Positions 42,386 to 43,173 of a DNA stretch of 64,000 nucleotides are shown in pieces (positions within the stretch are counted from its first letter, which is position 1; each line of letters starts with the position of its first letter). Source of the stretch: Escherichia coli (GTDB taxonomy: Bacteria > Pseudomonadota > Gammaproteobacteria > Enterobacterales > Enterobacteriaceae); NCBI RefSeq assembly GCF_965641715.1, contig NZ_OZ282454.1; one strand, 5' to 3'. The notes under the pieces are model-generated. The model worked only from the letters and a program-made list of their open reading frames with translations, did not search any database and was not told where the DNA came from. A program made the translations under genes and the position numbers.

Positions 42386-43173
42386 ATTCATGAGCACAAT
42401 TTCTCACGCCTTCGTCACACGCAGCCGGAAGATTTTCCGGTAGAGAAACTCGCCAGTTTTGCGGTGATGCAGTTAATGCTCAATCTGCACAACCCACAAA
42501 ATAAAAATCCGTACAAGCATGAAATGCTTGAACAGTTCCATGCAGATATACAGGATCACTTATCAGAATACATCCATTCGATAAATCAGTTGCCTCACAC
42601 AAATCCTGAGTTAATGGACGATCATTTCTATCTCAAAATTTTGCGCGTTGCTAATTCAGTTTCTTCCGAAGAAGATAAAAGCAGAGCGCTGTTTGTTTTG
42701 TTTGGACTTTTATCAATTCTGAATAAACCAACTCTATATGACAAAATCAATATATTAAGAAACAAGATTTTTGCTGGTATCCATACCATTGAGATTATTC
42801 ATACAGGCCATGATTTCGACAGCACTGAACCCAGACCGGCATTCGCAATAGCGCCCAATATCTTTTGTCTTTATAAAGATGAAAACAGAATTTATCTTCC
42901 TTTATCCCATAACTTTACTCTCAGCTTTATTACTGGCGTTGCATCATATTTCAATCCGCGAATAGACGTTTTTTCTCCTCGTCCCGAGCAGCTAAAATGC
43001 TGCCAAGACCGGAGCCTAAACTTTTTCAAGGTCTCGTTTGATTACATTGACAATGTAATGACAACAATCGATATGTATAATGTTGGTGGATTTGCCCCTA
43101 TATTTCCAGACACCTGTTATCACTTAACCCATTACTGGCCCGCTGCCGCAGATATTCCCGTGGCGAGCGATTT
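42386..43173 (+). pseudogene. Orphan AT-rich ORF fragment of unknown function, apparently truncated at both ends by IS elements
   Basis: Open frame runs out of the IS481 end with no in-frame ATG near the junction and fuses into the truncated IS21-like fragment at about 43174; no family recognised. Confidence 0.4.

Follow-up and report, generated by a model that had tools for sequence, protein, structure and literature searches.

The gene considered here is a member of DUF4238 (PF14022), a protein family linked to anti-phage defence. A single DUF4238 protein from a P2-like prophage hotspot of E. coli confers strong resistance to T7, with its "molecular function currently unknown" (Rousset et al. 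2022, PMC9122126). DUF4238 is also present in TIR-containing defence systems (PMC11350192), and a 2024 survey lists Rst_DUF4238 among the systems that "could not be classified"; a mechanistic study of DUF4238 was not found in the literature. The gene fragment in the DNA under study derives from a DUF4238 gene, referred to below as the parent. Parent and Rst_DUF4238 both belong to PF14022, have their overall predicted fold class in common and share an N-terminal H-x-[FV]-L-S-Q-x-x-L-x-x-F motif, and homologues of the parent are likewise found in P2-like prophage hotspots. In the form of the membership motif H-x-[VF]-[LP]-[SQ]-Q-x-x-L-[RK]-x-F, the parent reads Q7 H8 V L S Q W V L R N F, which aligns with HHFLSQCYLKGF of the pFR101 protein. 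However, the tested Rst_DUF4238 (sequence from Table S2) is 308 amino acids long and the parent 375, the two are similar in sequence over only about 90 residues at the N-terminus (hhalign E 0.019), and the parent matches just the first half of the PF14022 model. Judged from these alignments, the parent subfamily is divergent from the tested DUF4238 protein. The part which the two have in common is precisely the part that has been lost from the fragment, which begins at residue 97 and from which the N-terminal motif is absent.

The window, that is the whole stretch of DNA analysed, comprises 64,000 nucleotides of E. coli contig NZ_OZ282454.1, and the DUF4238 remnant occupies positions 42386-43086 on the plus strand. 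Its 701 nt correspond to nt 289-989 of a 1128 nt gene, in other words to codons 97-329 and two nucleotides of codon 330, which is the middle 62% of the gene. Megablast against PLSDB matches this segment with genes annotated "DUF4238 domain-containing protein" at 99.0-99.7% identity, carried by IncF-type and other plasmids of E. coli, Salmonella, Klebsiella, Enterobacter and Shigella, and with more distant alleles at 85-92% nucleotide identity. Two intact plasmid genes, in NZ_LR890509.1 (locus L001; WP_112030387.1) and CP057372.1 (locus L003; QMG65649.1), both of 1128 nt and 375 amino acids, are 99.4-99.7% identical to the remnant at the nucleotide level and in the same frame, with one to three amino acid differences. 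Compared to these genes the window copy is without 288 nt at the 5' end (codons 1-96), 139 nt at the 3' end (codons 331-375) and its native neighbours, and it is found at another position of the backbone, between IS ends. The nearest intact copies differ from the remnant by 2-4 nt, the very nearest by 2 nt of 699. The dN/dS of the remnant is 0.10 against a 92%-identical relative and 0.06 against an 85%-identical one; by such sequence measures, purifying selection acts on the gene family and the truncation happened recently. Two of the amino acid differences, P166 and I181, also occur in P0010, a database form which keeps its native N-terminus, and are therefore alleles rather than signs of decay. 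With a probability of roughly 93%, 42386-43086 is a recent and non-functional remnant of an IncF- or ICE-borne DUF4238-family gene that was cut by IS elements and whose parent was most likely a defence protein.

The segment has a G+C content of 38.5%, compared with 47.8% over the window as a whole. Only one of its frames is open, the other five containing 11-18 stops each, and the probability that 233 codons stay open by chance at this composition is about 5e-7, so that it represents a real coding frame. The frame is still open because the truncating event is recent, and it continues by chance into the IS DNA on both sides, by 9 codons into the IS481 end and by 34 into antisense IS sequence. 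The resulting chimeric open reading frame, at 42359-43192 on the plus strand of the open reading frame listing, has 277 codons and consists of 9 codons of IS481 end (GTG plus eight), 234 gene codons and 34 codons antisense to IS2 and IS21; it starts with a GTG inside the IS481 inverted repeat, 4 nt downstream of an AGG that constitutes a weak Shine-Dalgarno sequence, and stops with a TAG at 43190-43192. A preliminary description of this DNA had correctly noticed a long frame of low G+C content at this place, but measured it at 260 codons (42386-43173) instead of 277, and the right edge it gave, 43173, is not the stop codon and lies beyond 43086, where the homology with the parent ends. It was also right that the frame runs straight out of the IS481 terminus, 42386 being the first base after 42385, but not that a nearby in-frame start is lacking: there is a GTG just within the IS end, and annotation pipelines use it. 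In pPE041_2 PGAP names the product "hypothetical protein" (WP_236419298.1). The exact 277 amino acid protein (P0122) is found on 27 contigs and a near-identical variant (P0121) on 66. The only PHROGs match of the 277 amino acid sequence (aa 239-271) is an artefact that covers the antisense IS2 part.

The remnant alone has no meaningful match in Pfam, NCBIfam or PADLOC, which is what would be seen of a frame that had opened by accident in an AT-rich spacer between IS elements; the missing Pfam match is, however, explained by the deletion of most of the PF14022-matching part. The likelihood that the frame is such an accident is virtually nil: it is refuted by the low chance probability and the stop-rich alternative frames, by the near-identity to annotated intact genes and the dN/dS values, and by the existence of a family of 128 homologues (E<=1e-3) under strong purifying selection.

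Where the preliminary description could assign no family, the intact gene falls clearly into DUF4238. The protein encoded at L001:4713-5837 matches PF14022 only at aa 6-162 (E 1.5e-8, model positions 1-145 of 281). The 128 homologues come from a search of 5.8 billion proteins, and the 120 of them that were listed are 41-91% identical to the parent, nearly all with a precomputed PF14022 assignment. An AlphaFold2 model of the parent (pLDDT 88.9, pTM 0.88) has 52 structure matches in AFDB50 at E<=1e-3, and all 50 of those listed are DUF4238 proteins aligned over their whole length. Membership of DUF4238 is thus supported at the level of both sequence and fold. A sequence profile search of the PDB with the parent gave no match and Foldseek against the PDB yielded only a meaningless TM of about 0.12, and PADLOC-DB v2 (E<=0.01) gave no match for the fragment, the parent or two neighbouring genes of the intact locus, which encode a 530 amino acid protein and a korC-like protein. 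Truncated DUF4238 forms of 209-318 amino acids are also seen in public assemblies (P0005, P0006, P0010, P0083, P0124), some of them in clusters with tens of member sequences.

What the remnant has lost can be read from the conservation and the predicted structure of the family. In an alignment of 41 sequences, 22 of the 45 invariant columns are located in aa 1-96 (W13, L15-D21, R32-W34, H36, L53, K62, F65, L67, F76-E79, E81 and E86), and in the AlphaFold2 model the deleted parts contain the first beta-hairpin (32-54), the long helix 79-99 and the C-terminal helices 341-374. Since the structural elements at both termini are gone together with half of the invariant residues, the product of the remnant would almost certainly be inactive, and any protein made from it would be expected to be misfolded, without the conserved N-terminal core and the C-terminal helices.

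On the left, the remnant abuts a complete IS481-family element of about 1.2 kb (41184-42385, minus strand), which is recognised by NF033577 and its terminal inverted repeats. Its transposase gene at 41243-42328 (minus strand) scores 288.8 bits on NCBIfam NF033577 (cut-off 224), and the 26 nt inverted repeats are located at 41185-41210 and 42360-42385. The limits of the element are fixed by a second copy at 19226-20427, which is 100% identical, inverted and 20.8 kb apart. The DUF4238 gene resumes at nt 289 immediately after the inverted repeat that ends at 42385, which places the junction at gene nt 288/289. In CP057404.1 one IS481 copy joins the tpx flank of the other copy (19226-20427) to the DUF4238 remnant, and this join through a single copy shows that recombination between the IS481 copies (inversion, deletion or recombination) has occurred in this plasmid lineage. 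The end of the element also overlaps a match to the Rfam family psRNA2 (RF02349) at 42286-42467 on the plus strand, which at 40.3 bits is below the gathering threshold of 65 (E ~1e-7). The well-aligned part is limited to model positions 1 to about 115, which are equivalent to the last 100 nt of the IS481 element, antisense to the 5' UTR of the transposase gene and the inverted repeat. The psRNA2 family may describe the end of an IS481-family element or an outward transcript from it; beyond psRNA2 there were no other Rfam matches at the locus.

On the right, the frame was thought to fuse into a truncated IS21-like fragment, but an 85 nt remnant of IS2 (IS3 family) intervenes at 43087-43171 on the minus strand. 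This remnant extends from the right terminus of IS2 (TGGATTTGCCCC...) to the last transposase codons, with the stop codon at 43098-43100 (minus strand). The intact gene diverges from the window exactly at 43086/43087, which is the IS2 terminus (gene nt 989/990). A 106 nt query containing the IS2 segment is at least 80% covered by one match in 2,707 plasmid records; the matches listed are 94-98% identical and lie under features annotated as IS3 family or IS2 transposase, and an alignment to an annotated IS2 copy (L018) is identical base for base from the terminus over 85 nt. The IS21-family piece proper is found at 43171-43576 (minus strand) and comprises the left end of the element with istA codons 1 to about 101, truncated internally at the IS2 remnant. 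Over 406 nt it shares 99.75% identity with the complete copy at 26385-26790. Its reading frame (43132-43473, minus strand, 113 aa) scores 59.9 bits on NF033546, below the whole-protein cut-off of 160 because only the N-terminal quarter of IstA is retained, and PGAP labels it 'incomplete... missing C-terminus'. The IS21-family element had in turn inserted into IS66-family remnants (43577-44248, minus strand), which consist of a frameshifted partial transposase and a partial TnpA, are 73-82% similar to the other IS66 copies of the window, and were annotated from PGAP on pPE041_2 with coordinates transposed from L014. At 43170/43171 the IS2 remnant (internal position ~85) meets IS21 within istA codon 101-102, and as there is no IS terminus on either side this junction must stem from deletion or illegitimate recombination rather than transposition. 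A 30 nt exact direct repeat of the IS21 terminal region (43546-43575) is located 2.2 kb downstream at 45761-45790, where it may be a solo IS21-type end. A search for target-site duplications at the two IS481 copies and the IS2 junction found none, the other halves of both insertions being gone. An 8 nt flank common to the IS2 junction and one independent IS2 copy is best put down to a ranking bias, as IS2 gives thousands of matches.

The arrangement of the left junction also bears on whether the chimeric frame might be expressed, perhaps from an outward or hybrid promoter of the IS481 end, and might have kept or gained a function, for instance as a dominant-negative or decoy DUF4238 protein. 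The frame is intact, has a GTG start with a weak Shine-Dalgarno sequence and is called by PGAP as well as by other gene callers, so that a truncated product may be translated; the sub-threshold psRNA2 match reads outward over the IS481 end on the same strand, and a promoter-like site at 42359-42387, a pair of hexamers, spans the junction between IS481 and the gene. However, the number of promoter-like sites does not exceed that in shuffled sequence (2 against an expected 3.3), and this one overlaps the GTG, which would place the start of a transcript downstream of the start codon. The scar has persisted and is present in about 90 contigs, but with only 2 nt separating the remnant from an intact copy such persistence says nothing about selection, and the carriers are all closely related pig-associated plasmids, as would fit hitch-hiking. 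Taken with the loss of half of the invariant residues and of the terminal structural elements, an expressed and functional chimera is highly unlikely, and the fragment is an ordinary IS-bracketed pseudogene of an already known gene family.

Positions 1-41199 of the window are identical to CP057088.1, an IncFIA/FIB plasmid of E. coli from pig faeces, and this region encodes RepFIB, a T1SS with a giant Ig-like adhesin (5156-19060, including a 7.4 kb gene for the Ig-like repeat protein), STb, EAST1, ccdAB, parA and parM/stbB. The stb (STb, ~34068-34280) and astA (EAST1, ~34816-34929) genes, both on the minus strand and with coordinates taken from the identical record CP057088.1, are located in an IS-rich block just upstream of ccdAB. 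From the presence of the STb and EAST1 genes the window can be recognised as part of a porcine ETEC-type IncF plasmid. The same scar is found in CP057088.1, CP055625.1, CP057404.1 and pPE041_2, all from pig faeces and the last from a Korean swine isolate, and in only one of 5,426 complete RefSeq E. coli genomes.

Such surroundings, with STb and EAST1 about 8 kb upstream and the T1SS adhesin locus farther upstream, together with the low G+C content, would suit the guess made in the preliminary description that the fragment is left over from virulence-associated cargo such as a toxin or an effector. The parent is nevertheless a DUF4238-family protein and gave no match to a toxin, effector or adhesin family in Pfam, NCBIfam, PHROGs or the PDB; low G+C is equally typical of defence cargo; and intact copies are carried by non-virulence IncF, Klebsiella and Enterobacter plasmids, by ICEs and by prophages, beside defence genes. 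A virulence origin is accordingly scarcely credible, and both family and genomic contexts point towards anti-phage or anti-MGE defence.

What did hold from the preliminary description is that the fragment comes from the interior of a horizontally mobile gene that lost both ends through IS activity: both breaks are IS termini, and the search of related plasmids for intact copies which it proposed recovered the full gene of 375 amino acids with its neighbours. In the intact plasmids the gene order is 530 aa gene, DUF4238, 96 aa korC-like gene, ccdAB, parA, parM and stbB. The intact gene thus sits upstream of ccdAB, parA and parM, whereas the window has the remnant after stbB and the IS481 element, and the window backbone picks up again at 36674, upstream of ccdA. 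Nowhere in the 64 kb window are the missing 5' and 3' parts of the gene, the 530 aa gene or korC present. It is proposed that an IS481-family element became joined to the gene at nt 288/289 and IS2 at nt 989/990, both of which junctions are present in the window, and that later IS-mediated deletions and recombinations would have taken away 96 codons at the 5' end, 45 codons at the 3' end and every native neighbour. IS2 would have been cut to 85 nt against the IS21-family fragment, and the same events would have left the remnant downstream of parM/stbB. The order of insertions, deletions and replicon fusions is something we infer from the present arrangement.

The parent is most likely a stand-alone anti-phage or anti-MGE defence protein, a proposal made by analogy with the family member that confers T7 resistance and from the contexts of the homologues, which fit defence cargo. 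In a P2-like prophage, a Pseudomonas homologue has an SRA-HNH gene and a SIR2-STAND gene next to it, and Raoultella homologues lie in an island with BrxC, TerB, ArdC, TIR+AbiC and an OLD-type nuclease. In Vibrio the homologues occur in cassette-like (integron-like) arrays, and a homologue in a chromosomal ICE of E. coli is accompanied by MobH, ArdC and RES-toxin genes. A few kb upstream of the intact locus, IncF plasmids carry a CBASS-like pair of nucleotidyltransferase and S-4TM effector.

The intact three-gene locus, which lies outside the window (L001:3087-6127, L003:4087-7127, L016:6092-9132), encodes the 530 aa protein, the 375 aa DUF4238 protein and the 96 aa protein labelled 'korC', the start of the last gene overlapping the DUF4238 stop by 4 nt. 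The 530 aa gene has no match in Pfam, PADLOC, PHROGs or NCBIfam. Its product contains a D386...E400-x-K402 motif, which makes it a PD-(D/E)xK candidate, and distant homologues carry PF08378 (NERD) or are named "Holliday junction resolvase-like predicted endonuclease". Homologues without DUF4238 are found in prophage immunity regions, in integrative elements and beside type I R-M and GmrSD genes. The idea that the 530 aa gene is an obligate partner of DUF4238 was rejected, as homologues of each gene occur alone in MGE or defence contexts, and the two are probably independent cassettes. Between an E. coli plasmid (L001:2780-5840) and the Raoultella island (L011:4067-7131) the 530 aa gene is conserved at 88% nucleotide and 91% protein identity, but the nucleotide similarity ends about 100 nt into the DUF4238 gene and the DUF4238 products share only 50% identity, a pattern resembling a sharp boundary of recombination or diversification of the kind typical of swappable defence cassettes. 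In pMRSN346595_67.9 (L017:3444-5678) an IS200C element splits the 530 aa gene. We tentatively suggest, at somewhat less than even odds, that the remnant came from a small defence islet widespread on IncF plasmids and ICEs, made up of the NERD-like 530 aa gene, a cassette-like variable DUF4238 gene and sometimes the korC-like gene.

If the divergent 375 aa DUF4238 subfamily does restrict phages or incoming plasmids, then its repeated disruption by IS elements, as in the window, by IS200C in pMRSN346595_67.9 and in several of the truncated database forms, would amount to the loss of a costly immunity gene in plasmid lineages. Even if the proposal of a defence islet is true, the window holds only a dead remnant, which cannot inform on the mechanism of DUF4238, and its importance beyond annotation is small; an intact plasmid allele of DUF4238 is a possible target for experiments. 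For annotation, the 277 aa "hypothetical protein" WP_236419298.1, together with its cluster, needs a flag that marks it as a chimeric pseudogene derived from DUF4238. The nested IS481/IS2/IS21/IS66 scar, for its part, serves well to mark the lineage of a group of pig-associated ETEC-type IncF plasmids from the UK and Korea.

Compared with the generic IS-bracketed pseudogene scars of IncF virulence and resistance plasmids, the remnant shows nothing unusual, having no target-site duplication, composite transposon or sign of selection. Like these scars, it is a piece of a gene that ends at IS termini, flanked by IS481, IS2, IS21 and IS66 sequences which are nested and mutually truncated, in an order that differs from that of related backbones.
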